The notes below the pieces were generated by a model that saw only the letters and a program-made list of their open reading frames with translations, did no database searches and had not been told where the DNA came from. A stretch of 57,308 nt of DNA, filler included, from Squatina squatina (taxonomy: Eukaryota): assembly GCA_031763465.1 (NCBI GenBank). It is 4 parts of 4 records of this genome, joined end to end, with 100 filler letters (N's around TTAATTAATTAA, not from the genome) between each part and the next. Parts side by side here need not be neighbours in the genome. Positions count along the whole stretch, not along the records: positions 13,936 to 27,008 come from JARFOE010000051.1; 3 more parts are not named here. One strand, given 5' to 3'. This document shows positions 13,936 through 56,804 of the stretch, piece by piece. Within the stretch, counting starts at the first letter, position 1, and the number at the start of each line of letters is the position of its first letter. The translations under genes were made by a program, and so were the position numbers.

Positions 13936-14245
13936 GAAAGAAAGAAATAATTTGCATTTATGCAGCATCTTTCATGACTTCAGGATAACCCAGAGTACTT
14001 CACAGTCGATTGAGTACTTTTTGAAGTGTTGCAATGTAGAGAAATGCAGCAGCCATATTGCACAAAATAAGGTTCCAGAAACAGAAATGAGGGAAATTAC
14101 CAAGCCATCTGTTATTGTAATGCTGGTTGAGGGATAAATGTTGGCCATGGCATCAAATTGAAAGCCTAGATTATGCGCTCAAGTATCTGGAGTGGGGCTG
14201 GAACTCTGAACCTTCTGACTCAGGGGAACGTGCTATCACTGACCT
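13936..14245 (-). mobile_element. Deu-domain SINE, near full length
   Basis: Tail (gaaagaaagaaa..ttgcatttat) through the Deu core to the reverse complement of a tRNA-like head (tggagtggggctggaac..aaccttctgactcagg). Confidence 0.75.
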
Positions 14246-17200
14246 AGCTTCTCTAGTCTATCCACATAACTGAAGTCCCTCATCTCTGGAATTATTCTCG
14301 TAAATCTTTCCTGAAGCCTTCTCTAAGGCCTTCACATCCTTCCTAAAGTGTGGTGCCCAGAATTGGACCAGTACTCCAGATGGGCCCAAACCAGTGTTTT
14401 ATCTAGGTTCATCATAATTTCTGCACTTTTTTACTCTATACCTCTATTTAAGAAGCCCAGGATCCCGTAAGCCTTTTTAACTGCTTTCCCAACCTGTCCT
14501 GCCACCTTCAGAAGTCTGTGCACTCATACCCCCGGTGTCTCTGTTCATGCACCCTCTTTAGGATTGTACCATTTAGCTTATATGTCCTTTCCTCAATCTT
14601 TCTACCAAAATATATCACTTCACACTTTTCTTCGTTAAATTTCATCTGCCACGCATCCGCCCATTTCACCAGACTGTCTACGTCTTCCTGACGTCTATCA
14701 CTCTCCTTCTCACCGTTCACTATACTTCTGCATTTTGTGTCATCTGCAAATTTTGAAATTGTGNNNNNNNNNNNNNNNNNNNNNNNNNNNNNNNNNNNNN
14801 NNNNNNNNNNNNNNNNNNNNNNNNNNNNNNNNNNNNNNNNNNNNNNNNNNNNNNNNNNNNNNNTTCGTAAATTATTTCTGCACCCTCAGGCCTTCACATT
14901 CTTTCCAAAGTGTGGTGCCCAGAATTCGGTACAATACTCCAGTTGAGACTGAAACAGTGTTTTATAAATGGTTATCTATGCCTCTATTTCTAATGCGCAG
15001 GATCCCATATGCTTTTTTAACCTCTTTCTCAACCTGCCCCACCTTCAATGATTTGTGCACATATACCCCAGGTTTCTCTGTTCATTCACCCCCTTTAGAA
15101 TTGCACCCTTTTGGTTTATATTGCCTCTCCTCATCACTTCACACATTTCTGCATTATATTTCATCTGCCACATGTCTGCCCATTTTACCAGCCTGTCTGT
15201 GTCTTCTTGAAGTCTATCACTCACTTTTCACTTGACTAACAAGTTTTGTGTCATCTGCAAATTTTGAAATTGTGCTCAGTACACCCAAGTCCAAGACAAT
15301 ATATATATCAAGAAAAGCAATGATCCTAGTACCGGCCTCTGAGGAACACCACTGTGTACCTTCCTCCAGTCCGAAAAAAAAACATTCAGCACTACTGTCA
15401 CTTCGCCAACTTAGTCTCCATGCTGCCACTGTCCCTTTTNNNNNNNNNNNNNNNNNNNNNNNNNNNNNNNNNNNNNNNNNNNNNNNNNNNNNNNNNNNNN
15501 NNNNNNNNNNNNNNNNNNNNNNNNNNNNNNNNNNNNNNNCTTCATTACATTTCATTGGCCACGCGTCTGCCCATTCCACCAGCCTGTCAATGTCTTCTTG
15601 AAGTCTATCATTATCCTCCTCACTGCTTACTATATTTCCAGGTTTTGTGTCATCTGCAAATTTTGAAATTGTGCCCTGTACACCCCATAGTCATAGATAT
15701 GTATCAAGAAAAGCATTGATTCTTGTATCGACTGGCAAGTCTATTATGTGGCACTTTATCAAACTCCTTTTGGAAGTCCATATGCATCACATCAACCGAA
15801 TTGCCCTCATCAAAAAAACTCAATCAAGTTTGTTAAACATGGTTTGTCTTTAACAAATGTATGCTGGCTTTCCTTAATTAATCCATATTTGTCCAAGTGA
15901 CTGTTAATTTTGTCCCCGATTATCATTTCTAAAAGCTTCTCCACTACCGAGGTTGAACTGACTAGCCTGATGTTGCTGAAGTTATCCTTACACCCTTTTT
16001 TTTGAACAAGTGTGTAACATTTGCAATTCTCCAGTCCTCTGGCACCAGCCCCATATCCAAGGAGGATTGGAAGATTCTGGCCATTACCTCCGCAATTTCC
16101 AATTACTTCCCTCAGCATCCAAAGATGCATCCCATCTGGTCCTGGTGACTTATCTACTTTAAGTACTAAGTTTCTAGTACATAGAAACATAGAAAATAGG
16201 AGCAGGAGTAGATCATTCGGCCCTTCGAGCCTGCTCCGCCATTCAATATGATCATGGCTGTTCGTCTAATTCAGTACACTGTNNNNNNNNNNNNNNNNNN
16301 NNNNNNNNNNNNNNNNNNNNNNNNNNNNNNNNNNNNNNNNNNNNNNNNNNNNNNNNNNNNNNNNNNNNNNNNNNNNNNNNNNACACGTCTATGCTTCTTT
16401 CATGCCTCAGTCATGTAGGCCCCAGCAGATGTATCCTATTATCTCAACTGTCTTGACTTCAAGACCCTTACTGCTGCTTGCCTGTGGTTTCCAAACATTT
16501 CACCTAGTTTTCAGTTGCCCTTATCTTTGCTCATTATTTCAGTTTTGTGAGAAATAATGTTTATGTCTGAAACTGCTGCAGCACTGCTTTTAACATCTTA
16601 GCTTCCCATCATGCCTTGCAATTACCCCAGCTGACTACTGGCATAGCTTCTACCATAACTTCTGCATACATTTAAGGTTTATAGTAACACTACTGCAATA
16701 TCAGCACCTTACATATATTTTAATACTAGGCACGTTGTGTCCTTTTACTATAGCCTCTGCATTTTACACTCGTACCCCTTCTGGTACCACATCAGTGTCA
16801 TCTGCAAATTTTGAAATTGTGCCCTGTATACCCAAGTGCAAGTCATTACTATATATCTAGAAAAGCAGTGGTCCTAGTACCGACCCCTTAGGAACACCAC
16901 TGTATACCTTCCTCCAGTCTGAAAAACTACCGTTCACCACTGTTTCCTGTCACTTAGCCAATTTCATATCCAGGCTGCCACTGTCCCTTTTATTTCATGG
17001 GTTTCAACTTCGCTTGCAAGCCTACTTTGTCGCACTTTAACAAATGGCCTTTGGAAGTTCATGAACACCNNNNNNNNNNNNNNNNNNNNNNNNNNNNNNN
17101 NNNNNNNNNNNNNNNNNNNNNNNNNNNNNNNNNNNNNNNNNNNNNNNNNNNNNNNNNNNNNNNNNNNNNATTTCTCACTTTTGTGTGTTAAATTTCATCT

Positions 17201-17480
17201 GCCACGTGTCCGCCCATTCCACCAGCCTGTGTCCTTTTGAAGCACATCATTCTCCTCCTCACTGTACTTCCAAAGTTTTGTCATCTGCAAATTTTGAAAT
17301 TTTGCCCTGCACACCCATGTCCAAGTCATTAATGTGTATCAAGAAAAGCACTGGTCCTAGAACCAACCCCTGGGGAACACCACTGTACACCTTCCTCCAG
17401 TCTGAAAAACAACCGCGCACCACTACTCGGTTTTCTGTCACTTAGCTAATTTCATATCCATGCTGCCAGTGTCCCTTTTA
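14246..17480 (-). mobile_element. Cluster of decayed CR1-clade LINE reverse-transcriptase fragments
   Basis: Translations [57 protein letters not shown] and CLTNLIEFF, with stops and frameshifts. Confidence 0.9.
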
Positions 17481-17619
17481 TGCCCTCTTGCAATACTGTC
17501 CTGCACTGCTCCAGAACGGAGGCAGATGAGCCAGGCTGACACTTTGATACGTAGGGAGGTGCTGTCCTAGAGATGGCACTTTAAACCAAGAATGGTAAAC
17601 CAAGACCAAGCACACGAGA

Positions 17620-17710
17620 CATGATCAGCCATGATCGTGTTGAATGGCGGTGCAGGCTCGAAGGGCCGAATGGCCTAATCCTGCACATATTTTCTATGTC
17701 TATGTTTCTA
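17620..17710 (+). mobile_element. CR1 LINE 3' end
   Basis: gatcagccatgatcgtgttgaatggcggtgcaggctcgaagggccgaatggcct plus a (tctatg)n tail. Confidence 0.8.
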
Positions 17711-17858
17711 TCATTCTTGATGGATGGTTATAGNNNNNNNNNNNNNNNNNNNNNNNNNNNNNNNNNNNNNNNNNNNNNNNNNNNNNNNNNNNNNNNNNNN
17801 NNNNNNNNNNNNNNNNNNNNNNNNNNNNNNNNNAGTTTTTAAACATATTTATATTTAG

Positions 17859-18002
17859 GTTCCTTGTGGACCAAGAAGAGCAGGAGTGCTCATCTGAGCC
17901 CCACAGCGAAATCTCCCCCACCCCAGGCTCCCTTCCCCAACCAGGAGCCTCATCCCAGTACATATCTTTTGCTGAGGACCATTCCCGCACGATTTATGAC
18001 GG
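17859..18002 (+). CDS. Candidate internal exon of an unidentified protein
   Basis: 144 nt, phase 2-2; acceptor atatttag, donor GG|gtgggc; FLVDQEEQECSSEPHSEISPTPGSLPQPGASSQYISFAEDHSRTIYD. Confidence 0.5.
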
Positions 18003-18589
18003 GTGGGCAGCCGCTTCCCATCAATTACCCAGACCTTACTGCCCAGGAGTTAAACTGAAGCCCACAGTTTCTAATACTTTGCCGATGCCTTAATGGTCGA
18101 TTAGCTGATCTATAATTACATGGCTTATCCTTCCCTTCTTTAATAGGGGCATTACGTTGACTGCTCTCCACCAGTCTCGTGTCACGATTTGTATGTCTAA
18201 GGAATATTGGTGCCAGGGCCTCTGCTATCCTTAGACTACCTTCAAATGCTTTGATTTGGTTTAACAGCATTGATCAGTTTTCAGGAGAGTAAATGAAGAG
18301 TACTCTTCTGGGCGGGAAGGGAGCTCTTTATGAATATTTTGACTCTGTATTGAGGACTGCAGGCCCTGAATTTGCTTCTGTTTCTGCCAATGTAAGTTAA
18401 TTATGCTGCCTATCCTGTTTTCCTGCCCCCCACCATTTGACTTCTGTGTGTACTCATCAGGTTGGCAGCATCTACTTTGATTCAGATATTCTGGGATTGT
18501 GCCTGTGCATCCTCTCCAATATTACTGTGATCAACAGTTTTTTGGTGAGACACATCTGGGGGATTCTTCTCTTCCCTCCTTTTTCCTTT

Positions 18590-18950
18590 TATAGAGTCAT
18601 AAAATCATTATGGCACAGGAGGCTGTTCGGCCCATCGAGTCCATGCCGGCTCTTTCGAGGAACAATCCGGTTAGTCCCACACCCCTCGCTCTTTCCCCAG
18701 ATCCCTGCAATTTTTTCTCCGACAAGTATTTATCCAATTCCACTTTGAAGACTGCTATCTGTATCCCCCACCCAATCAGGCAGGGCATTCCAAATCCTAA
18801 CCACTATATTGCCCTCATCCGCTCTCTCTGTTACCTCATCAAAAAACTCGATTGAGTCAGTCAAAAATGATTTGCCCTTAACAAATCTGTGCTGGTTCTC
18901 CTTTATTAGCCCATGCTCATCCAAGAGGCTGTTAATTTTCTGCCGGATTC
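18590..18950 (-). mobile_element. CR1 LINE fragments (3' end joined to an RT piece)
   Basis: FKVELDKYL, VVRIWNALP and GLIKENQHRFVKGKSFLTDSIEFF motifs. Confidence 0.8.
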
Positions 18951-19406
18951 TTGGCCAGGATTTTAATTTGGAGATGGGTAGGGTGCCAGGGNNNNNNNNN
19001 NGAGACGGGGTTTTCCACAGGTCCTGCTGAATTTAACGGCAGGGCCAGATTAGCATTTCAAAGCATTGATTCCGGCCCACAGCGAGCCAGATGGAGGGGC
19101 TGGTTGGCTGTCCGGCGGGCAGGCCTGTGGCACTAGGCCACAGAGAGGAGAAAGGAAGAGAGTGATTTGAAGTGGGGTCGGATGCTAGGGGAGAATTGTG
19201 GGGGCAGGAGTTTGGGGGGAGATCGGAAGGGTCGGGGGGAGTGGGGTACGATTATGGGGGAATGGCGAGGCAGGGACGCTGTATCTAGCAGGTCAGTGGT
19301 AGAAAGNNNNNNNNNNNNNNNNNNNNNNNNNNNNNNNNNNNNNNNNNNNNNNNNNNNNNNNNNNNNNNNNNNNNNNNNNNNNNNNNNNNNNNNNNNNNNN
19401 NNNNNN

Positions 19407-20116
19407 CAAGGAGGACAGAATTAGAGGAGTGCAGATATCTCGGGAGGTTGTGGGGTTGAAAGAGATTACAGAGATAGGGATGGGTGAGGCCATGGAGGGA
19501 TTTGAAAACAAGGATGAGAAGTTTGAAATCAAGGCATTGATTAACCGGGAGCGAATGGAGGTCAGCGAGCACAGAGGTGATAGGTAAGCAGGACTTGGTG
19601 CTAGTTAGGACACAGGCAGCTGAGTTTTGGATCACCTCCAGTTTACGTAGGGTAGAATGTGCGAGGCCAGCCACGTGTGTGTTGGAATAGTCAAGTCTAG
19701 AAGTAACAAAGGCATGGATGAGGGTTTCAGCAGCGGATGAGCTGAGGCAAGGGCGGAGACGGGCGATGTTACAGGGGTGGAAATAGACGGTCTTAGTTAT
19801 ACAGTGGATATGTGGTCGAAAGCTCACTTCAAGGTCAAATATGACGCCAAGTATGGTTCAGCCTCAGACAAAACTTGGAGAGAGGGATCGAGTCAGTGGC
19901 TTGGTAACGGAGTTTGTAGCGGGGACCGAAAACAATGGCATTGGTCTTTCCAATATTGAATTGGAGAAAATTTCTGCTAATCCAGAACTTGATGTCGGAC
20001 AAGCAATCTGACGATTTAGAGATCGTGGAGGGGTCGAGAGAAATGGTAGTGAGGTAGAGCTGGTTGTCATCAGCGTACATGTAGAAACTGATGCTGTGTT
20101 TTCACATGATGTCGCC
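19407..20116 (-). mobile_element. L2-clade LINE reverse transcriptase, C-terminal part
   Basis: YADDNQLY, NFLQFNIGKT, ETLIHAFVTSRLDYSN, IQNSAA and LADLHSLPV; frameshifted. Confidence 0.9.
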
Positions 20117-20384
20117 NNNNNNNNNNNNNNNNNNNNNNNNNNNNNNNNNNNNNNNNNNNNNNNNNNNNNNNNNNNNNNNNNNNNNNNNNNNNNNNNNNNN
20201 NNNNNNNNNNNNNNNNTCTACAGCCTTCACTGGACCTCCCCGGGAAAGAGAAGAGCTCCGATGCAAAACTCCAACTGTGTGGGGCAGAAAATCGCAAGCA
20301 ATCCAGGACTGTCAGGTAAGTTTTAGATATTTTTGCGATAGGAGGCATGCGCATGCAAGAAGCCTCTGATTGCAAATTCAGGGC

Positions 20385-20560
20385 CATTATCTGGTCATCA
20401 TCTCATTGCTGTTTGTGGGAGCTTGTTGGACACAAATTGACTGCCACATTTCCTACATTACAACAGCGACTACACTTCAACAAAAAAATATATTTCATTG
20501 GCTGTAAAGTGCCTTTGGGACATCCTGAGGTCATGAAAGGTGCTATATAAATGCAAGTCC
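20385..20560 (+). mobile_element. Deu-domain SINE 3' half
   Basis: cattgctgtttgtgggagcttg...tttcctacattacaacagcgactacacttcaa...aaaggtgctatataaatgcaagtc. Confidence 0.8.
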
Positions 20561-22256
20561 TCCCTCCCTCCCCGCGAGCAGGAAGGTCTCTGAGCAACTT
20601 ACAATAAAGAGCAAAGGAATGCAGCATGGGGAATGGAGAGAGTAGGATTGGCAGGGAAAGTAGAGAGGAGGGGAGTGGGAAGGAGAGGGTCAGATTGGTA
20701 ACTGAAAGGGAGGGTTTTGAGAAGGTTTTTCAAAGCATGGAGAGCCTGCAAGGTAGAGGGAACTGGAGAGAGAATTGCAGAGGGCAGTGCAGTAACTGAA
20801 TGGGCAACCACTGAAGACAGAGTGAAGGGAGAAGGAGGTGAGGTGTTAGAGGAAGATATATTTCATGACCATGAATGGTGGTAATTTGAGGCATTGCGAC
20901 CTACTGATCATGCAATTGGACTAGGTATCTGGAGGTCATGGGTTCAAATCCACCATGTTAAGTTGTGAAGTTGGGAATTCATGGGCTGGTACCAGAAAAT
21001 GACCACCCAAGGGNNNNNNNNNNNNNNNNNNNNNNNNNNNNNNNNNNNNNNNNNNNNNNNNNNNNNNNNNNNNNNNNNNNNNNNNNNNNNNNNNNNNNNN
21101 NNNNNNNNNNNNNGCCAACATACCATTTGCCTTCTTAACCGCCTGCTGCACCTGCATGCTTACTTTCAGCAACTGGTGCACAAGGACACCCAGGTGTTTC
21201 TGAACCCATACTTTCTGAACCCTGGTATGTATGTGTCATGTCTTTCAAGCACAATGCTCTTCTCTACAATGCAGATCCCCCGAAGGTTAAGTTAGTAAGT
21301 GCTATACACAGTGGTGTTGGCAGGATTATTTTTCGGGCGGTGTTTGGCAATGAACTGTATTGATTTACTTATCCTACCCCAGGCAGCAAAGTTAATAATT
21401 TGGATGACTTCCATTTGTTTTTTTGGAGAATGATTTCTGGTGAAGTTCAGATGCTTTGGGTTCAATTGACTATTGGACACTGGAATTTTGGTGCTTTCTA
21501 CTAGAATGTCAGTTGATGTTCTATAACAACCCTTTCCACTCACTTCCTCAGCACAGTATAAAAGTCTCTTATTGGGGTCCTGTGTAACAAACCATAAATT
21601 GTTTTTCCTATACTTGCTTTCATTTCTTTCCTTTGTGTTTTATGTGCTTAAGATACGGACCTAGTACTTCTACAGACCTGTCCCCATCTGCTGTCAGATT
21701 CTGCTGAAGTATAATGCAGGAAACATTTGCCACACTGAAAGGTTAGGCCTACGCTTATCTTTAAATGAGAGCACTTAGTCGCAAGAGATTGGCAGTCTTT
21801 GTAGAAGAAATGTCTGCAAGAGTAGATTGTCAGGAGTTCTGAAAAGGAGAAGCTTGCATCCTCGACCTGGCTGACTTGAAATGCAGGGGAGGAAGTGCTG
21901 ATCCGACCCACTGCACCAGCCTGTCTGTAAGAACTATCTGTGCAGTTGATGGCTTTGCTTTGCTACTGGGAGATGAGGGGAAACAATTGCATTGTGATTT
22001 CTAACTACAGCAAAAGCATGTTGAACTGACTTATCTTTATTAAACTGTCGTTTGGTGAAGGGTATAACTGACAACTTTGCCAGACAGAGTAATGTGACTA
22101 GTAACATGCTGCAATCACTAGAGAAGCTGGGGTTGTTTTCCTTGGAGCAGAGAAGANNNNNNNNNNNNNNNNNNNNNNNNNNNNNNNNNNNNNNNNNNNN
22201 NNNNNNNNNNNNNNNNNNNNNNNNNNNNNNNNNNNNNNNNNNNNNNNNNNNNNNNN

Positions 22257-22855
22257 CCATGCTTGACCTGATGTCATGAGACTTTATGGTGTCCGGAGTC
22301 AGTGTTGAGGGCTCCCAGGGCCACTCCCCCCCAACTGTATACCACTGTACTGGTGGGACAGGACATACCCAGGGATGATAATGATGGAGGAGTTTGGGAC
22401 ATTGGTTGAAAGGTATGATTCTGTGAGTATGATAATGTCAGGCTGTTGCTTGTCCAGTCTGTGTGACAGTTCTCCCAAATTTGCTACAAGACCCTAGATG
22501 TTAGTGAGGAGGAATTTGCAGGGTCAACTGGGCTGGGTGTGCTGGTGCCTTGTCTGAATTCAGTGCTGAGGTTGATGCCAGGTGGTCCGTCCGGTTTTAT
22601 TATTATTGTTTTTCCTTGTGGTTTGTTACTACTGAATGGCTTGCTAGGCCATTTCAGAGGGGAGTTAAGAGTCAACCACCTTGCTGTGGGTTTGGAGTCA
22701 CAAATAGGCCAGACCAGGTAAGGACAGCAGATTTCCTTCCCTGAAGGACTTTAGTGAATCAGGTAGGTTTTTATGACGACCATTACTGATAGCTTGTTAT
22801 TTAACTGAATTTAAATTCTCCAGCTGCCATGGTGGGATTTGAACTCACATCTCTG
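22257..22855 (-). mobile_element. LINE 5' region (APE endonuclease start) with a tRNA-like head
   Basis: Near-duplicate of 23628-24070; the minus strand reads gagttcaaatcccaccatggcagctgg, then runs into endonuclease-like coding sequence. Confidence 0.6.
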
Positions 22856-23627
22856 TGCATCTGTTTCCTGATTGCACCGGGCCACGCAATACCAGGTACG
22901 CTTCCACACACACTGGGATCCGTGGGCCATTATGCTGCCCCCTAATACGCAGCATCAAACAGCAAGTTCACATAGAAGGGCTCCATCAGGTAAGTGCACA
23001 TTCTATTCAGATGCTGGCGGGGTACTCCATAGGTATGCCTTCGATCACAAAATCTAGGCGAATATCTCTTTGAATTAGCATTTTTTTTTTCTTATCGCAC
23101 CTTCGTGTAGCATTTTGAGACAATTTTCTATATTAAAGTTACTATATAAATGCAAATTGTTATTGGTATTGTATTTGCAACAATTACCTTGATCCCCGAA
23201 AATGTCTCATCTTTGGGACAAGGGACCGAGGTGACTGCATTGTCACTTTTGATGACCTTGAACTCGAGGGTGAGCTTTTGCCACAGATTAATTTCAATGC
23301 AACAAAATCGAAACTACCTAGGAGCCTATTTTCCTCTCCTAACGCTCCCGTTGCTTAGATGTAAGGCGGGAGACCAGGAAAACCTTTGCAGAATTTAAGA
23401 ATGAATTTAACTCCTGGGCGGTTGGCGAGCAGAACGTACAGGCCTGTTGCCTGAGTGGTGCTGTGAAAGGATCAGTCCATTTTAACAGCTGGACCTCATT
23501 AACATGGATGCGGTGAACTGCCAACAGNNNNNNNNNNNNNNNNNNNNNNNNNNNNNNNNNNNNNNNNNNNNNNNNNNNNNNNNNNNNNNNNNNNNNNNNN
23601 NNNNNNNNNNNNNNNNNNNNNNNNNNN

Positions 23628-24070
23628 TGAGTCTGAGTATGACTGTCAGGCTGTTGCTTGACAGCTCTTCCAATTTTGGCAGAAGTCCCCAGATGTTAAT
23701 GAGAAGGACTTTGCAGGGCCCACTGGGCTGGGTTGGCCATTGTTGTCTGTTGCCAGCGCCGAGGTCGATGCCGAGTGGTCCGTCCGGTTTTATTATTGTT
23801 TCTTGTAGCGTTTGGTACAACTGAGTGGCTTGCTAGGCCATTTCAGAGGGCAGATCGATAAATTTCCTTCCCTGAAGGACATTAGTGAACCAGGTGGGGT
23901 TTTACGGCAAGTTTCATGGTCACCATTACTGACATTAGTTTTTATTCCAGATTTATTTAATTAACTAAATTTAAATTCTCCAGCTGCCATGGTGGGGTTT
24001 GAACTCGTGTCTCTGGATTGTTAGTCCAGGCTTCTCGATTAGTCCCATGACTAAACCACTAAGCTACCGT
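23628..24070 (-). mobile_element. Second copy of the tRNA-headed LINE 5' region
   Basis: Translation KVLLINIWGLLPKLEELS resembles the N-terminal motif of LINE APE endonucleases; the head has a B-box-like gagttcaaaccc. Confidence 0.6.
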
Positions 24071-24285
24071 TCTTCACACCAAGGGTAGCAGGAATCTGGA
24101 ATACTCTTCTCCAAAAAGCTGTTGAGGCTAGGTGAATTGAAAATTTCAAAACTGAGATTGATAGATTTTTGTTAGGGCATTAATAGTTATGGAACCAAGG
24201 TGGGTAGAAGGAGTTAAGATCAGCCATGATCTAATTAAATGACAGAACAGGCTTGAGGGGCTGAAGGGTCTATTCCTATTCCTGT
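24071..24285 (+). mobile_element. CR1 LINE 3' end
   Basis: ggaatctggaa..ttcaaaactgagattgatagatttttg..gatcagccatgatct..aggcttgaggggctgaa. Confidence 0.75.
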
Positions 24286-24770
24286 GAGTATATGGAGGTG
24301 GAAGATAATGGTTTTAGTCTTCCCAATGTTTNNNNNNNNNNNNNNNNNNNNNNNNNNNNNNNNNNNNNNNNNNNNNNNNNNNNNNNNNNNNNNNNNNNNN
24401 NNNNNNNNNNNNNNNNNNNNNNNNNNNNNNNCATCACAATTTAAAAAAAAATTCTGTTTTAAGTTTTAGCTTTCCCGGCTCCAGTGGAAATAGTCACGGT
24501 ACTCCAAGTACTCATGCCGGTCAATCGGCTGGTGCCTTTTCTTGGCTAAGGTAGATTGGTGTTGAATCGTGGAGAAATCCCTGATGCACTTGCTTAATTT
24601 CCTAGCTGCGAACAAATGTGTACTAAGAGCTCTGGAGGGTGTGTGGTAGAACTGTGGAGAAAGTTACTTTGAAGATTAGCACTCTGGGCAAACTGTTATC
24701 GATAGCATCAGGAGAAGTCCCGTGCATTTTTTTTTGAGTCTGACAGAAACAACTTTTTGTTTTGATTGAG

Positions 24771-24963
24771 GTTTCCATCGAATGACAAAGAAAGACTCGC
24801 TCAGTGGCTTTCAAATATGAAAAGGGAGAAATGGGTTCCGTCCCCATACCAATACATCTGCAGTGAACATTTTACTTCTGACAGCTTTGAATGGAGGTGG
24901 GGGACACGATACCTGAAGGCAGATGCTGTACCTACAGTTTTTTCTTTTCCGGAGCAGCCTACG
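24771..24963 (+). CDS. THAP-domain protein exon 2 (THAP8/THAP5 subfamily)
   Basis: FPSNDKERLAQWLSNMKREKWVPSPYQYICSEHFTSDSFEWRWGTRYLKADAVPTVFSFP carries the FP, W, CSxHF and AVPT motifs plus the RWG.RYL signature of THAP5/THAP8. 193 nt, phase 2-0, acceptor gag, donor gtacgt. Exon 1 is not in the window. Confidence 0.9.
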
Positions 24964-25154
24964 GTACGTTTGCTCTCAATAGGTTTGCATTTTCCTCCAT
25001 GTGTACTGTATCCCAATAGCTAGAATAATGCTCGAAATCAACCTGGAATTGCTTCGTGTCTACCACACGGTACAGTAGGGCTCTCGTGACTTAAGGAGAT
25101 GGCGACAAAGTAAAACCTTATTAGCCCATTCTGACCCAAGTAGCCAACGAGGAT

Positions 25155-25385
25155 TACGCTAGCACAGTGGTTATGAATAATCCAGCGGTCTGGACTAATG
25201 TTCCAAAGAATTTGAGTTCAAATCCCACCAGAGCAGTTTGAGAATTTTAAAACTTTTTTAAAATCTGGATTTTTAAATTTAAAAGAACTGCTACCAGTAA
25301 AAGTGACCATGAAGCTGTCATATTACCATAAAAACTCAACTGGTTCATTAATGTCCTTTAAGGAAGGAAGCCTGCCATCCTTACC
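25155..25385 (+). mobile_element. 5' head of the tRNA-headed LINE/SINE family
   Basis: tagcacagtggtta...gagttcaaatcccaccag...tgtcctttaaggaaggaagcctgccatccttacc is the reverse of the 22700-22850 region. Confidence 0.65.
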
Positions 25386-25639
25386 NNNNNNNNNNNNNNN
25401 NNNNNNNNNNNNNNNNNNNNNNNNNNNNNNNNNNNNNNNNNNNNNNNNNNNNNNNNNNNNNNNNNNNNNNNNNNNNNNNNNNNNNTATTCAAGACAGAGA
25501 TTGATAGATTCCTAGATATTAAAGGAATCAAGGTATATGGGGATAGTGCAGGAAAATGACGTTGAGGTGGAAGATCAGCCAGGATCTAGTTGAGTGGCAG
25601 AGTAGGCTCGAGGGGCCGAATTTCTTATGGTCTTATGTT

Positions 25640-26280
25640 CTTCGTGGCAGCCACTGGTTCGCAGGGAGCCGTGAGTGGAGCAGGCCCCAGCCCCGGCCAG
25701 TTTAGCAGAGGGGTCCTGGAAGTGGCGTTAGGCCTCTCATTTGCATATATAACAAGGTCTAATGTGTGTGTTTTAAAAAAACAGCCTGGCTCACCACTGC
25801 AGAAAATTAAAATGTTTCCCATTTACGGTCGCCAACTCTGGTATTCGTGGAGGTTTTGTCACATGACTTCCCGCCTCCAACTGCCCCGCCCGGTCAAGCT
25901 TTTTCCCCCTTTTCCAATATTATTTTATCAATAATAAAGAAAAGAGTTCAAAGGAAATTAATAAAACACGCAATTAAAAAAAAAATAACGATTAAAAAGT
26001 GAATAAAATATGCGAAGATGCACCATGTGAATTTGGTCGCTGTGAGACGAGTGTTAAACCTTTTTTTTTACCCCCTCTTTTTCAAATCAGTTTCGGAATA
26101 TAATCGGAGTTTTTTTTTCCCACGCCAGGATGTCCTGCCCGAGCCCAGCATGGAGCGGCCGCCTCACCCCCGGCGATGGCTGAGAAAGGCCAGGAGCTGA
26201 CGGGCTTCTCTCGCTGATTCCCCCTCATGGCCGGGCATTGATCGAGGCGTCGCTGCGAACTGCAAGCTGCAAACCCGATA
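25640..26280 (+). promoter_or_regulatory. CpG-rich promoter-like region upstream of the T-box ORF, with overlapping octamer and TATA
   Basis: ATTTGCAT (25739-46) overlaps TATATAA (25746-52); GC boxes near 25870-25892; CpG-rich patches. Confidence 0.45.
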
Positions 26281-26284
26281 GCAA

Positions 26285-26528
26285 ATACAGACACACACAC
26301 ACACAATATATATTTATACACCCCACTATATCTATACACCACACACACCCAATACTATAAATAAAGCACACATACCCAACATTCTATATACACTGCACAC
26401 ACCCAATACTGTATATACACCACACGCACCCAACACTATAAATACACCGCACGCACACTACAAACCCCCAACACTATATACACCACACAAACACACACCT
26501 CAATATATACAACACACACACACAAACT
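26285..26528. repeat. Imperfect CA/TA-rich minisatellite (about 28-bp unit, roughly cacacacccaatactatatatacac)
   Basis: About 8 degenerate units ending just before the ATG at 26534. Confidence 0.75.
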
Positions 26529-26533
26529 TCACC

Positions 26534-27008
26534 ATGGACGGAGAAGCCCCTGCAGCCATCACCCCCAGCAATGTCCGCCGAGCAGAAGGTGACGACATGA
26601 TCAAGTCCCCTCCCTCCTGCCTGAAATCTGGCAATGTCAAGGTCTACCTGAAAAAGTGGAGCATCTGGGACAAATTTTACAACTTGGGCACCGAGATGAG
26701 GATGTCCAAGCGAGGGAGGTTTATGTTTCCATACTGTGAATATTCTGTCTCCGGGCTGGATCCCGAGAAGAACTACATCATGGCAATGGATATCTCGCCG
26801 GTGGACACCTATCGCTATAGGTACAATGGGTGCAAATGGCAGATCAATGGGAAAGCCACCCCACATGTGATGGGGAGGCTTTATTTCCACCCCAATGGCA
26901 GTGTTTCTGGAAGAGAGTGGATGGTCAAGCCAGTGTCTTTTGCCAAACTCCGGTTAACCAACTGCCCCAGTGCAGAAGAAGGCAATGCAATCCTTCATTC
27001 GATGCATC
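26534..27008 (+). CDS. Divergent MGA-like T-box transcription factor, 5' part (truncated by a gap)
   Basis: Kozak ACCATGG; uninterrupted T-box (WDKFYNLGTEM..GRFMFPYC..GLDP..MDISPVD..GKATPHVMGR..HP..PVSFAKLRLTN..EG..ILHSMH). FPYC, MDISPVD, PHV.GR and EG.xILHSMH, and the lack of introns in the T-box, are MGA-subfamily traits. Confidence 0.88.
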
Positions 27009-27052
27009 NNNNNNNNNNNNNNNNNNNNNNNNNNNNNNNNNNNNNNNNNNNN

Positions 27053-27064
27053 TTAATTAATTAA
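27053..27064. other. Artificial scaffold linker TTAATTAATTAA
   Basis: 44N + 12-mer + 44N. Confidence 0.95.
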
Positions 27065-27269
27065 NNNNNNNNNNNNNNNNNNNNNNNNNNNNNNNNNNNN
27101 NNNNNNNNCTTTCAAAACACAAATCAGGTTAACATCTGATGGATGAACATTCCATATTTATTGCACACTAAAGACGTGCATTGAGTCTCCAATATTGAGT
27201 GTGAATAACAGTAAATAAGAATCCAAAAAAGGGTAAGCTTGGTAGCAACAACAAAGAGGCAAGAAAAAG

Positions 27270-34044: not shown

Positions 34045-34279
34045 GAGAGGGGTTCACAGGAGAGAGGTTTACAGGAGGAAGTTCCACAGGTGAGAGGTTA
34101 CAGGAGGGAGTTCCACAGGAGAGAGGTCCACAGGAGAGAGGTCCACAGGAGAGAGGTCCAGAGGAGAGAGGTTTACAGGAGGGAGGTCCACAGGAGAGAG
34201 GTCCACAGGAGAGAGGTCCACAGGAGAGAGATTTACAGGAGAGGACTTTACAGGAGAGAGGAACAGAGGAGAGAGGTTT
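34045..34279. repeat. 15-bp tandem repeat (CAGGAGAGAGGTCCA)n, about 15 copies
   Basis: Directly visible; translates as RREVH or QERGP repeats. Confidence 0.95.
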
Positions 34280-39534: not shown

Positions 39535-39722
39535 CTAATACTCCACGTTCTTTACACGCAGCACTACTGGTACTGAGGTACAGGGGATCATTCCCAAGTC
39601 TGTGATTACCAAATCAACAAAGTCAGGCGGTGTGACATCATATACTAGGTTAAGAAGGTGCAGCTTGGAATTTGCGTGCCAGTTCTTCAGAGGAGTGCTT
39701 TCATTTCGAGTCACCAAAAGGT
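39535..39722 (-). CDS. EIF2B4: Translation initiation factor eIF2B delta subunit, last exon (start lies in a gap)
   Basis: [47 protein letters not shown] is the eIF2B-delta C-terminus. TAG at 39537-35 and AATAAA at 39451-46. Confidence 0.95.
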
Positions 39723-51962: not shown

Positions 51963-51979
51963 TGAACTTTCGGTGAACT
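51963..51979 (-). promoter_or_regulatory. HoxA1 3' retinoic acid response element (DR5)
   Basis: AGTTCA-CCGAA-AGTTCA, with the same spacer as the known mammalian Hoxa1 3' RARE (GGTTCAccgaaAGTTCA); about 3 kb 3' of the HoxA1 stop as assembled. Confidence 0.92.
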
Positions 51980-55003: not shown

Positions 55004-55356
55004 TCAGCCTGAAGTATTAATGGTTTCTGAGGTAGATGATGATGGGGAGGGAGTCGATGAGGTAGAGCTAGATTTGTCTGAGGTGTCTTCTGTGTTTGCT
55101 TCACTCCCAGGAGTGGTTGGAGAAGCTGAGGTAAGACCCTCCTTTTCCCGTTTTTTCTGCTTCATCCGCCGATTCTGGAACCAAATTTGTACCTGGGTTT
55201 CGTTGAGCTGGAGGGCAGCAGCGATTTCCACCCGCCTGGCCCGAGTCAAGTACTTGTTGAAGTGGAACTCCTTTTCCAGCTCCGTTAGTTGTTTGGTGGT
55301 GAAATTGGTTCTCACCGTATTGGGCTGACCGGCAAAACCGTACTCCCCAGCCTTTC
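55004..55356 (-). CDS. HOXA1: Homeobox protein Hox-A1, exon 2 (homeodomain)
   Basis: [75 protein letters not shown]...; paralogy-group-1 homeodomain with an A1-type tail; acceptor ttag, phase 1; TGA at 55006-04. Confidence 0.97.
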
Positions 55357-56102
55357 CTAAATCAGTAAGAATGATCACAAAACAAGCAGGTAAGTCAGGA
55401 AGGATTTACAAGAGAGAATGTGATAACTACTTGCGATTGCTGGGCTACTTTTACTGCACTGATAATCAATCATAGCCGTTTCAGTACTTTGGAAATGTCT
55501 TGTCAGAAAGTCTAAAAGGATTACTCTACAACTGTTACATGTCATCAGCTGGTTGATGTTTNNNNNNNNNNNNNNNNNNNNNNNNNNNNNNNNNNNNNNN
55601 NNNNNNNNNNNNNNNNNNNNNNNNNNNNNNNNNNNNNNNNNNNNNNNNNNNNNNNNNNNNNNNNNNNNNNNNNNNNNNNNNNNNNNNNNNNNNNNNNNNN
55701 NNNNNNNNNNNNNNNNNNNNNNNNNNNNNNNNNNNNNNNNNNNNNNNNNNNNNNNNNNNNNNNNNNNNNNNNNNNNNNNNNNNNNNNNNNNNNNNNNNNN
55801 NNNNNNNNNNNNNNNNNNNNNNNNNNNNNNNNNNNNNNNNNNNNNNNNNNNNNNNNNNNNNNNNNNNNNNNNNNNNNNNNNNNNNNNNNNNNNNNNNNNN
55901 NNNNNNNNNNNNNNNNNNNNNNNNNNNNNNNNNNNNNNNNNNNNNNNNNNNNNNNNNNNNNNNNNNNNNNNNNNNNNNNNNNNNNNNNNNNNNNNNNNNN
56001 NNNNNNNNNNNNNNNNNNNNNNNNNNNNNNNNNNNNNNNNNNNNNNNNNNNNNNNNNNNNNNNNNNNNNNNNNNNNNNNNNNNNNNNNNNNNNNNNNNNN
56101 NN

Positions 56103-56383
56103 GTGATGACTGTAGCCTGTGTTAAAGCTCTGTGCTGGGTATCCTGTCCCACAATTGGGGTGGGCACTGTAGGAGATGCCCAGGTTGCTGTGATGTGAGT
56201 AGCTAGTCTGGTGATGGTGATGGTGAGGAGGACCACCTATTTGGATACTTCTGCTCACGATATAGCGGTCATCTGTATTGCAGTTATTATTACTAACAGC
56301 ACAAGACTGATAAGTTGTAATTCCTTGATCTGCATNNNNNNNNNNGAGTAGTCCAGAAAAGAGTTCATCCTTGCATTGTCCAT
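56103..56383 (-). CDS. HOXA1: Hox-A1 exon 1, visible part (the rest is in the gap 55562-56102)
   Basis: [13 protein letters not shown]..[10N]..[41 protein letters not shown]; ATG at 56383-81. Confidence 0.96.
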
Positions 56384-56530
56384 CTGTCACTGGGGTAACC
56401 AGCATGTAAAGTGACTGTCCACCAACCTGGATGGACCGTGCCAACTTGCCCACTTCCTCAATGGGGCTGAAAGAAAATGATATCAATATACAGTGAAGTG
56501 TCGCCACGTGACTCGATCCGTCCAATCGCG
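56384..56530 (-). promoter_or_regulatory. HoxA1 5' UTR and proximal promoter
   Basis: Minus strand ATATCATTTTCTT..GCCCCATTGAGGAAGTG..AAGTTGGCAC..CAGTGACAGATG resembles the remembered human HOXA1 5' UTR; E-box CACGTG at 56505-10; CCAAT at 56522-26. Confidence 0.8.
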
Positions 56531-56541
56531 GGGTCCCCTGC

Positions 56542-56804
56542 GAAGTTTGCATGCTCTTGCTGGTGATCGATCACTGTTTTAGTGGCATTTAAATTACAAA
56601 CGCTCTTCCATCAAGGTTACGCGCATTATTAGCCCACAAATGCATTATACTTCAAAGCATGCCCGGCAGAATGCAGCAGGAATTTATTCAAGATGCACGT
56701 ACTCTCTTTTGGTCGGGTCTGCAATGGCATTAGTATTACCACCGATCGCGCGTCTACAACAGGGGACTATCCCGTCTTCTTCCGCACAGCAGCCTCTCCG
56801 TCAG
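56542..56804 (+). ncRNA. HOTAIRM1: HOTAIRM1-like divergent lncRNA, exon 1
   Basis: AAGTTTGC...GTGATCGATCACTGTTTTAGTGGCATTTAAAT...AGGTTACGCGCA closely resembles the remembered 5' end of human HOTAIRM1; correct position and orientation; strong donor CAG|gtaaga at 56804/5. Confidence 0.65.

Follow-up and report, generated by a model that had tools for sequence, protein, structure and literature searches.

A T-box reading frame of Squatina squatina and a divergent MGA paralogue of cartilaginous fishes

An open reading frame (ORF) of Squatina squatina encodes the beginning of an MGA-like T-box with changes at conserved sites, which raises the question of whether it is the MGA of this species grown divergent or a second gene of the same family. 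An earlier note on this DNA had proposed a fast-evolving, genome-duplication sister of MGA, lost in mammals. We regard it as practically certain that the ORF belongs to an MGA paralogue, and present below the evidence for this assignment, for the age of the gene and for its putative function.

The reading frame and its scaffold

The window, that is the whole stretch of DNA analysed (57,308 nucleotides of assembly GCA_031763465.1), consists of four unrelated scaffolds linked by N44-TTAATTAATTAA-N44 joints, of which three identical copies are present against 0.01 expected by chance. The second scaffold (13936-27008) is built of contigs of ~1 kb, with gaps of mostly 100 N between them, and carries the ORF at its very end; since the joint that follows is artificial, sequence past 27008 is not part of the T-box locus. 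The features of the locus are:

24771..24963, + strand: internal coding exon of a THAP-domain gene, same-strand upstream neighbour (Pfam THAP, E 1.2e-14)
25386..25485, no strand: THAP contig and T-box contig joined across 100 N, a gap whose real size may differ (N map)
25632..26431, no strand: CpG-richer stretch, possible promoter (CpG observed/expected)
26309..26531, + strand: CA-rich tandem repeats, periods 18-54, abutting the ATG (Tandem Repeats Finder)
26534..27007, + strand: first 158 codons of the proposed paralogue, running off the scaffold end (start Met in CACC-ATG-G context)
26633..27007, + strand: N-terminal two-thirds of the T-box, residues 34-158 (Pfam, PDB matches, diagnostic sites)
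27009..27108, no strand: artificial joint of unrelated scaffolds, N44-TTAATTAATTAA-N44 (N map)

Translation of 26534-27007 (+) gave 158 codons (158 aa) without a stop, in which Pfam recognised the T-box (PF00907, E 1.2e-39, positions 2-122 of 182). The domain starts at residue 34-35, with PDB matches running from residue 34, in agreement with the ~33 aa counted ahead of it in the earlier note. When the window was compared by tblastn with the orthologous protein of Cetorhinus, residues 1-158 were matched without a gap at 91.8%, which indicates that the start Met is conserved and that the stretch is without an intron; the gene had been called intronless, and this holds for the visible stretch, across the 121 visible Pfam positions. 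It had also been called intact, which is more than the window shows: the ORF runs off the scaffold end at 27008, so that two-thirds of the T-box are visible and the last third of the domain is cut off. No further exon of the gene was found in the window by tblastn with six full-length relatives, and Rfam returned 0 matches on the window. The four motif changes listed earlier are all present, namely EMRMS (54-58), SKRGRFMFP (58-66, R62 retained, R63F), HPNGS (119-123) and KLRLTN (138-143). However, N121 of HPNGS is also present in canonical shark MGA, thus G122 and S123 alone are diagnostic in this motif.

Pfam matches among the 140 ORFs of at least 45 aa in the scaffold were limited to the T-box, a single THAP exon and two fragments of reverse transcriptase. 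The THAP exon is bounded by AG (24769-24770) and GT (24964-24965) and its frame is open. Its matches in the PDB, where the THAP entries are THAP1 and THAP2 only, were THAP2 and THAP1, and an Atlas search returned generic THAP clusters only; we take it to be of THAP5/THAP8 type. The 'THAP8-like' neighbour described before is indeed a THAP domain exon, although the Atlas and PDB searches do not distinguish THAP8 from THAP5. As the other exons of the THAP gene are absent, either the gap to the T-box contig is large or the join is uncertain, and if the join is right the gap at 25386..25485 must hide the 3' exons of the THAP gene. A fusion of THAP and T-box, both on the + strand and 1.6 kb apart, was considered and rejected: in 7/7 elasmobranch orthologues translation begins at this same Met and a THAP domain is missing, and a splice acceptor ahead of the T-box ATG is absent. 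Neither a pyrimidine tract nor an acceptor was seen in the CA-rich repeats (26309..26531), which are therefore probably 5' UTR. Many LINE reverse-transcriptase fragments, with two Pfam RVT_1 matches, lie upstream of the THAP exon at 14450-20120.

The CpG-richer stretch, in which CpG observed/expected is 0.55-1.11 in four 200-base bins vs 0.43 for the window, is a possible promoter, on weak evidence. It contains an octamer (25739), TCACATGA (25859) and an E2F-like GGCGGGAA (25868-25875, minus strand); GGCGGGAA occurs 3 times in the window against 0.49 expected. These motifs cluster at 25739-25886, upstream of the T-box ATG. Targets of PRC1.6 are marked by E2F and E-box sites, according to passages of PMC5806899, so that the paralogue might itself be under repression by MGA, a speculative idea.

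The other scaffolds of the window hold unrelated features. At 55004-56570 (minus strand) lies a two-exon homeobox gene (Pfam Homeodomain, E 6.6e-23), presumably hoxa1-like, and about 3 kb 3' of it, at 51963-51979 (minus strand), a perfect DR5 retinoic-acid response element, which we take to fit the known Hoxa1 3' element. No second DR5 occurs in the window, for which 0.12 would be expected (12 of 100 shuffles contain one). The terminal coding exon of a gene for an eIF2B subunit, in our view delta-like, is found in a different scaffold at 39538-39720 (minus strand; Pfam IF-2B, E 3.6e-07), and a 15-base tandem repeat of 15.6 copies at 34045-34277 has one open frame that would give QERGP-like repeats.

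Orthologues, a separate MGA and the age of the duplication

Orthologues of the ORF protein were found as nine proteins of eight species, all annotated as 'uncharacterized' and predicted gene models throughout: Callorhinchus, Cetorhinus (two isoforms), Amblyraja, Mobula birostris, Hemitrygon, Stegostoma, Scyliorhinus torazame and Rhincodon. They are 78-92% identical to the window protein, the seven elasmobranchs share its start Met, and the elasmobranch proteins are about 2,200-2,300 aa long. Among the best 120 of 223 matches the orthologues scored 550-934 bits, the next match, mammalian MGA, scoring 285. Moreover, a HMMER search of 1.84 billion representatives with residues 1-962 of the protein from Cetorhinus produced 2,877 matches. 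Among the best 150 of these, four were at orthologue level (two full proteins and two fragments at 79-84%), the rest being MGA-type or other T-box proteins, and no orthologue from outside the chondrichthyans was present.

Canonical MGA is named in 16 shark and ray species, in one of them as Stegostoma 'MGA a'. Five named species have both genes, always on sequences of different size (longest contigs, MGA/paralogue 96.4/26.2, 94.4/18.1, 406/49.4, 210.7/62.8 and 254/148.7 Mb), the paralogue being on the smaller one in 5/5, an indirect sign of different chromosomes. Within one species the two T-boxes share 50-56% identity, whereas between the shark MGA T-box and that of the named human reference identity is 78%. 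The presence of both genes on different sequences in five species implies a paralogue, neither a divergent orthologue nor a tandem copy; the view that the ORF is too divergent for the shark MGA orthologue is thereby upheld, and five related species carrying MGA plus the paralogue speak against its being the only MGA of the genome.

It could still be argued that the ORF belongs to the sole MGA of S. squatina, grown divergent, or to a decaying pseudogene or processed copy, as the window holds 158 codons, the 3' exons are absent and the canonical MGA of this species is unseen. We find this hardly credible, given the coexistence of both genes in five species and a T-box 97.6% identical to that of the Cetorhinus paralogue and 54-57% identical to those of shark MGAs. 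Between shark and ray, too, the T-box is more conserved in the paralogue (93.7%) than in MGA (86.3-86.8%), which also counts against this reading.

The assignment to the paralogue was also examined site by site, in a T-box alignment of 280 rows comprising 8 paralogues and 272 others, many of the latter being isoforms from mammals and birds. Neither this count nor the trees include nine rows without a name that resemble mammalian MGA (one of them perhaps human), three more nameless rows, or any of the non-MGA T-boxes that lack a name. A site was termed diagnostic when invariant in 8/8 paralogues and differing from the residue found in at least 90% of the 272 rows. There are 22 such sites, of which other rows share at most 2; three MGA-type rows that had escaped this selection share 1 residue each. 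The ORF protein has 15/15 of the diagnostic residues within the T-box stretch that it covers, and along 126 residues of the T-box its identity is 90-98% with three paralogue proteins, as against 54-57% with seven named shark and ray MGAs.

In the bony vertebrates sampled no orthologue was detected, either by the searches, by the 22 diagnostic sites or in a tree with teleost MGA-like genes. A loss is thus not mammal-specific, and 'lost in mammals', as it had been put, is too narrow. The teleost MGA-like genes nest within ray-finned MGA (100/100). This clade was considered as a candidate orthologue, since a quick tree of the T-box alone placed it beside the paralogue, among long branches, but joining it to the paralogue was rejected (AU p 0.002).

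The paralogue clade stands apart from shark MGA with support of 100/100 (30 rows, 383 columns), on a stem of 1.39 changes per site with tips of 0-0.28. Whole-protein identity between shark and ray is 63% for the paralogue vs 59% for MGA; for the bHLH it is 89 and 84% in repeats 1 and 3 and 74% in repeat 2 of the paralogue, vs 77% in MGA. The label 'fast-evolving' therefore fits only the stem branch; the present-day T-box changes more slowly than that of MGA. The tempo is that of a single early burst with constraint afterwards.

The age of the duplication was tested with 17 rows rooted on one long-branched MGA-type protein, P0181. A duplication confined to chondrichthyans was recovered in 2, 10 and 3 of 1000 bootstraps, with AU p values of 0.031 (LG+G4), 0.152 (site mixture) and 0.075 (non-T-box blocks). 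The proposal of a genome-duplication sister thus gains from the bootstraps, where a shark-only origin reaches 0.2-1%, although AU rejects that origin in 1/3 tests only. Because long-branch attraction pulls towards the ancient answer, genome-duplication age is likely, not proven. The root itself, P0181 (3,449 aa), is a deep-branching MGA that has all blocks and its own altered T-box C-terminus, and is possibly a jawless-fish (cyclostome) MGA.

A segmental or transposed copy made in the chondrichthyan stem, which would never have been in bony vertebrates and would require no loss, would agree with the four orthologue-level rows among the best 150 of 2,877, none from outside the chondrichthyans, with the single AU rejection and with N121, which the paralogue has in common with shark MGA. 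We nevertheless think such an origin rather unlikely: bootstrap support is minimal, the copy lies on a different, smaller sequence in each of the five species, and the THAP5/8-type neighbour would fit a duplicated chromosomal block, as follows.

On skate chromosome 9, promoter baits are placed at 62.18 Mb for Tyro3, 62.54 Mb for Mapkbp1 and 62.69 Mb for Mga-7 (Table 10 rows of PMC10115646), so that canonical MGA lies beside MAPKBP1/TYRO3, as expected in the earlier note, with the three genes within 0.5 Mb. Other rows of that source give a bait of a Thap5-labelled gene at 5.83 Mb on chromosome 38 of 40, a microchromosome, and 20 named symbols in 60 of the 217 places that name chromosome 38. The same rows (PMC10115646) place a bait of UnkProt_1949 20-40 kb beyond the Thap5-labelled gene. 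UnkProt_1949 is a candidate for the paralogue in skate. Eleven of the 20 chromosome 38 symbols belong to human 19q13 (Hnrnpl, Hnrnpul1, Bhmg1, Psmd8, Zc3h4, Tbcb, B9d2, Itpkc, Clptm1, Ccdc97 and Actn4). Human THAP5 is located at 7q31 and THAP8 at 19q13, thus the skate Thap5-labelled gene would be the THAP8 counterpart. MAPKBP1 and WDR62 are paralogues, and THAP8 and WDR62 are adjacent. TYRO3 lies at 15q15 and AXL at 19q13.2 (passages of PMC8323642), and the TAM family was expanded by 1R/2R (passages of PMC4898815), the two genes forming a duplication pair. The THAP5/8-type neighbour fits this 15q15/19q13 paralogous pair, which counts against a chondrichthyan-only copy. Taking these indirect synteny data with the trees, we consider a genome-duplication origin of the paralogue likely. 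The shark X matches human chromosome 12, in the text available of PMC10620051, and nothing was found in support of an X-chromosome placement of the paralogue; the parts consulted of supplements of shark genome papers, including PMC11406177 and PMC13100897, gave no matches.

Architecture and DNA-reading surfaces of the paralogue

A T-box (Pfam E about 1e-57 in full orthologues) and a Max-network bHLHZ are combined in one protein in 9/9 of the orthologous proteins; the bHLH lies outside the window. Outside the DNA-binding domains, four conserved blocks occur in the order of MGA in 6/6 paralogue rows, which establishes that the gene descends from MGA. By contrast, the MGA domain (PF16059, DUF4801) was detected by Pfam in 0/9 paralogue proteins, and with a profile built for this analysis the paralogues reach at most -1.7 bits vs 66-76 bits in elasmobranch MGAs. 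The domain is present in 18/19 elasmobranch MGA rows; the one exception is a Leucoraja copy that lacks the T-box. In three paralogues the corresponding interval measures 198-215 residues and contains 0-4 Cys; in two MGAs it measures 484-487 residues and contains 18-23 Cys. In human MGA the DUF4801 region binds L3MBTL2 (passages of PMC8266391), and targeting of PRC1.6 requires MGA (passages of PMC5806899). The earlier note had left open whether the bHLHZ and the PRC1.6-binding parts are retained; the bHLHZ is kept, in elasmobranchs as three repeats, and none of the nine proteins carries the L3MBTL2-binding MGA domain. Judging from this architecture there is good reason to expect that the paralogue is uncoupled from PRC1.6.

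Three HLH stretches were recognised by Pfam in 8/8 elasmobranch proteins of 7/7 elasmobranch species. The Callorhinchus model has one bHLH and ends right after repeat 1 on an 88-kb contig, and may thus be truncated and incomplete. In Stegostoma the repeats are 45-61% identical among themselves and 32-37% identical to the MGA domain of the same type by pairwise alignment, so that they arose by internal duplication once the paralogue had separated from MGA; when the repeat region was compared with itself by BLAST, the full-length self match alone was returned. The best PDB matches of repeat 1 were MYC and MAX, although weak (E 0.098-0.65), and an Atlas search with it returned only plant ILR3-like clusters (0.75-0.78), below lead level. 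The precomputed PF23177 label on the orthologues is probably the same bHLH cross-match. In the literature searched we found no report of three bHLH-zippers in one vertebrate protein.

The T-box changes concentrate in helix 3 and in the C-terminal helix, the two segments described as specificity determinants of T-boxes in passages of PMC4434323, where T-box motifs are also said to be nearly constant across animals. Between residues 198 and 218, 20/21 positions are invariant across paralogues and many differ from MGA, including F214Y, A215G, K216T and G217A. The earlier reading of changes at conserved sites is upheld, in that DNA-facing segments are altered, and fixed, in the paralogues. An AlphaFold2 model of the T-box has a normal fold (pLDDT 89.5, TM 0.88 to TBX1), with pLDDT <50 in residues 189-199 of the last helix. 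We lean towards a paralogue T-box that would read a changed site.

In the bHLH repeats, H5, E9 and R13 are retained in 22/22. Basic position 12 is Ser in 15 and Trp in 7 of the 22 repeats, and is Arg in 95/96 canonical rows. According to passages of PMC3177325, the bases are contacted by b5, b9 and b13 and the backbone by the near-invariant b12, and H5, E9 and R13 are the residues that were mutated to abolish MGA binding (passages of PMC5806899). With Arg12 lost in all repeats, their binding to E-boxes may be weak or lost. The zipper leucines are kept, and one zipper core position, in a heptad register that is inferred, is Lys in 22/22 repeats, a position taken by Lys or Arg in MGA and by Glu in MYC. 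A shared core Lys would disfavour self-pairing and fits MAX as partner; from these residues, pairing of each bHLHZ with MAX appears fairly probable.

Two other uses of the repeats have to be weighed. The same gene, of the same origin, might act as a MAX sink or decoy, whose repeats would pair with MAX but have little affinity for E-boxes, drawing up to three MAX from MYC, MXD and MGA complexes or parking them at T-box sites. The replacement of Arg12 in every repeat by Ser or Trp would agree with such a decoy, as would the retained zipper leucines and the additional acidic changes in the basic region of repeat 2 of Mobula and Hemitrygon; on the other hand, the base-contacting H5, E9 and R13 (passages of PMC3177325 and PMC5806899), conserved in all 22 repeats, would be needless for a pure decoy. 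On this balance we hold the decoy to be possible, though unlikely. Alternatively, the repeats could pair intramolecularly into a MAX-independent single-chain bHLHZ dimer. The shark repeats are spaced 236-297 residues apart, enough to fold back, and double-bHLH proteins exist in the REF-1 family of C. elegans (passages of PMC4683635), yet Lys would face Lys in the inferred register, and an odd number of repeats would leave one unpaired, which makes this arrangement improbable.

The explanation that we favour on balance, from origin through to a MAX-linked, PRC1.6-free function, runs as follows. The ORF is the opening part of the coding sequence of an MGA paralogue that cartilaginous fishes have conserved, which most likely originated in a vertebrate whole-genome duplication, would have been remodelled in one burst before the chimaera/elasmobranch split and kept under strong constraint after it, and would have been lost early in bony vertebrates. 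Its product would be a nuclear transcription factor with a T-box site other than the standard T-element, whose three bHLHZ would each pair with MAX; as a multivalent MAX partner it would suit E-box-like sites that are spaced or variant. Lacking the L3MBTL2-binding region, it would not scaffold PRC1.6 as MGA does. The most specific form of this proposal, an undescribed, Polycomb-free MYC-network factor born by genome duplication and lost in bony vertebrates, with at most three MAX per chain and a T-box site unique among vertebrates, is a tentative one, and we would doubt it as a whole.

Relation to known genes and meaning

The paralogue resembles MGA in its N-terminal T-box coding stretch, uninterrupted as far as it is visible, in its four motifs in MGA order and in a C-terminal bHLHZ with H5, E9, R13 and zipper leucines. 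It differs from MGA, which combines a T-box, DUF4801/PF16059 and one bHLHZ, in having no MGA domain, three bHLHZ and no Arg12, in a T-box only 50-56% identical, in being ~800 residues shorter and in its place on another chromosome-scale sequence. Teleost mgaa/mgab and the squamate 'MGA-like' genes are likewise extra MGA-family copies; unlike the paralogue, these duplicates nest in bony-vertebrate MGA and share at most 2 of the 22 diagnostic residues, and those of teleosts retain the MGA domain.

Several of these copies have features of their own. Nine teleost-type MGA rows (P0144, P0154, P0155, P0159, P0164, P0166, P0167, P0169 and P0183) gave two bHLH matches with a profile built for this analysis, some of them weak, so that duplication of the MGA bHLH may have recurred. 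In lizards, the 'MGA-like' P0091, P0092, P0104 and P0108 have a degraded MGA domain (24-32 vs about 100 bits); the squamate copies lie within squamate MGA, so that the Polycomb-docking region was lost there independently and more recently. Leucoraja erinacea P0274 (2,465 aa) is MGA-like with a bHLH and without T-box or MGA domain; it is 62-92% identical in pieces to skate MGA, on a sequence of the same size, and is probably a recent local duplicate. Several Mga copies are named in the skate supplement (rows of PMC10115646).

Passages of PMC10115646 count 19 ohnologues that persist in chondrichthyans but have disappeared from bony fishes, and describe beta copies as changing faster and being lost more often. 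The paralogue has the same distribution as these 19 genes and its long stem fits the beta-copy pattern; it could be among them. More than one bHLH per chain is also known from the C. elegans REF-1 family (passages of PMC4683635) and from an amphioxus MGA-like protein with more than one bHLHZ (passages of PMC3177325); these proteins have two bHLH and no T-box, REF-1 being HES-like, whereas the paralogue has three and a T-box. In nematode TBX-33, -39 and -40, changed DNA contacts go with non-canonical motifs (passages of PMC4434323). The paralogue is like them in its changed DNA-contacting residues, although theirs is an unrelated lineage and its own motif is only predicted.

No description of the paralogue was found in the literature searched, outside of which most subscription papers lie, and its gene symbols LOC125447831 (Stegostoma), LOC109924273 (Rhincodon), LOC116967820 (Amblyraja), LOC144671331 (Cetorhinus) and LOC103191498 (Callorhinchus) are absent from that literature. 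Mga is given as single-copy in human and mouse, with its origin unknown, in passages of PMC3177325, and zebrafish as having mgaa and mgab only in passages of PMC9916924; the parts consulted of PMC6172302 hold no passage on MGA paralogues. The gene is a real and conserved MGA variant, apparently undescribed.

Retention of an ohnologue in sharks alone is a pattern already known. A second MGA-family gene extending from chimaera to shark and ray, its recognition helices carrying fixed changes, would offer a natural test of the residues that set T-box specificity, and its having kept the four MGA motifs while dropping the L3MBTL2-binding domain suggests that DNA binding by the MGA family may be separable from PRC1.6 scaffolding.
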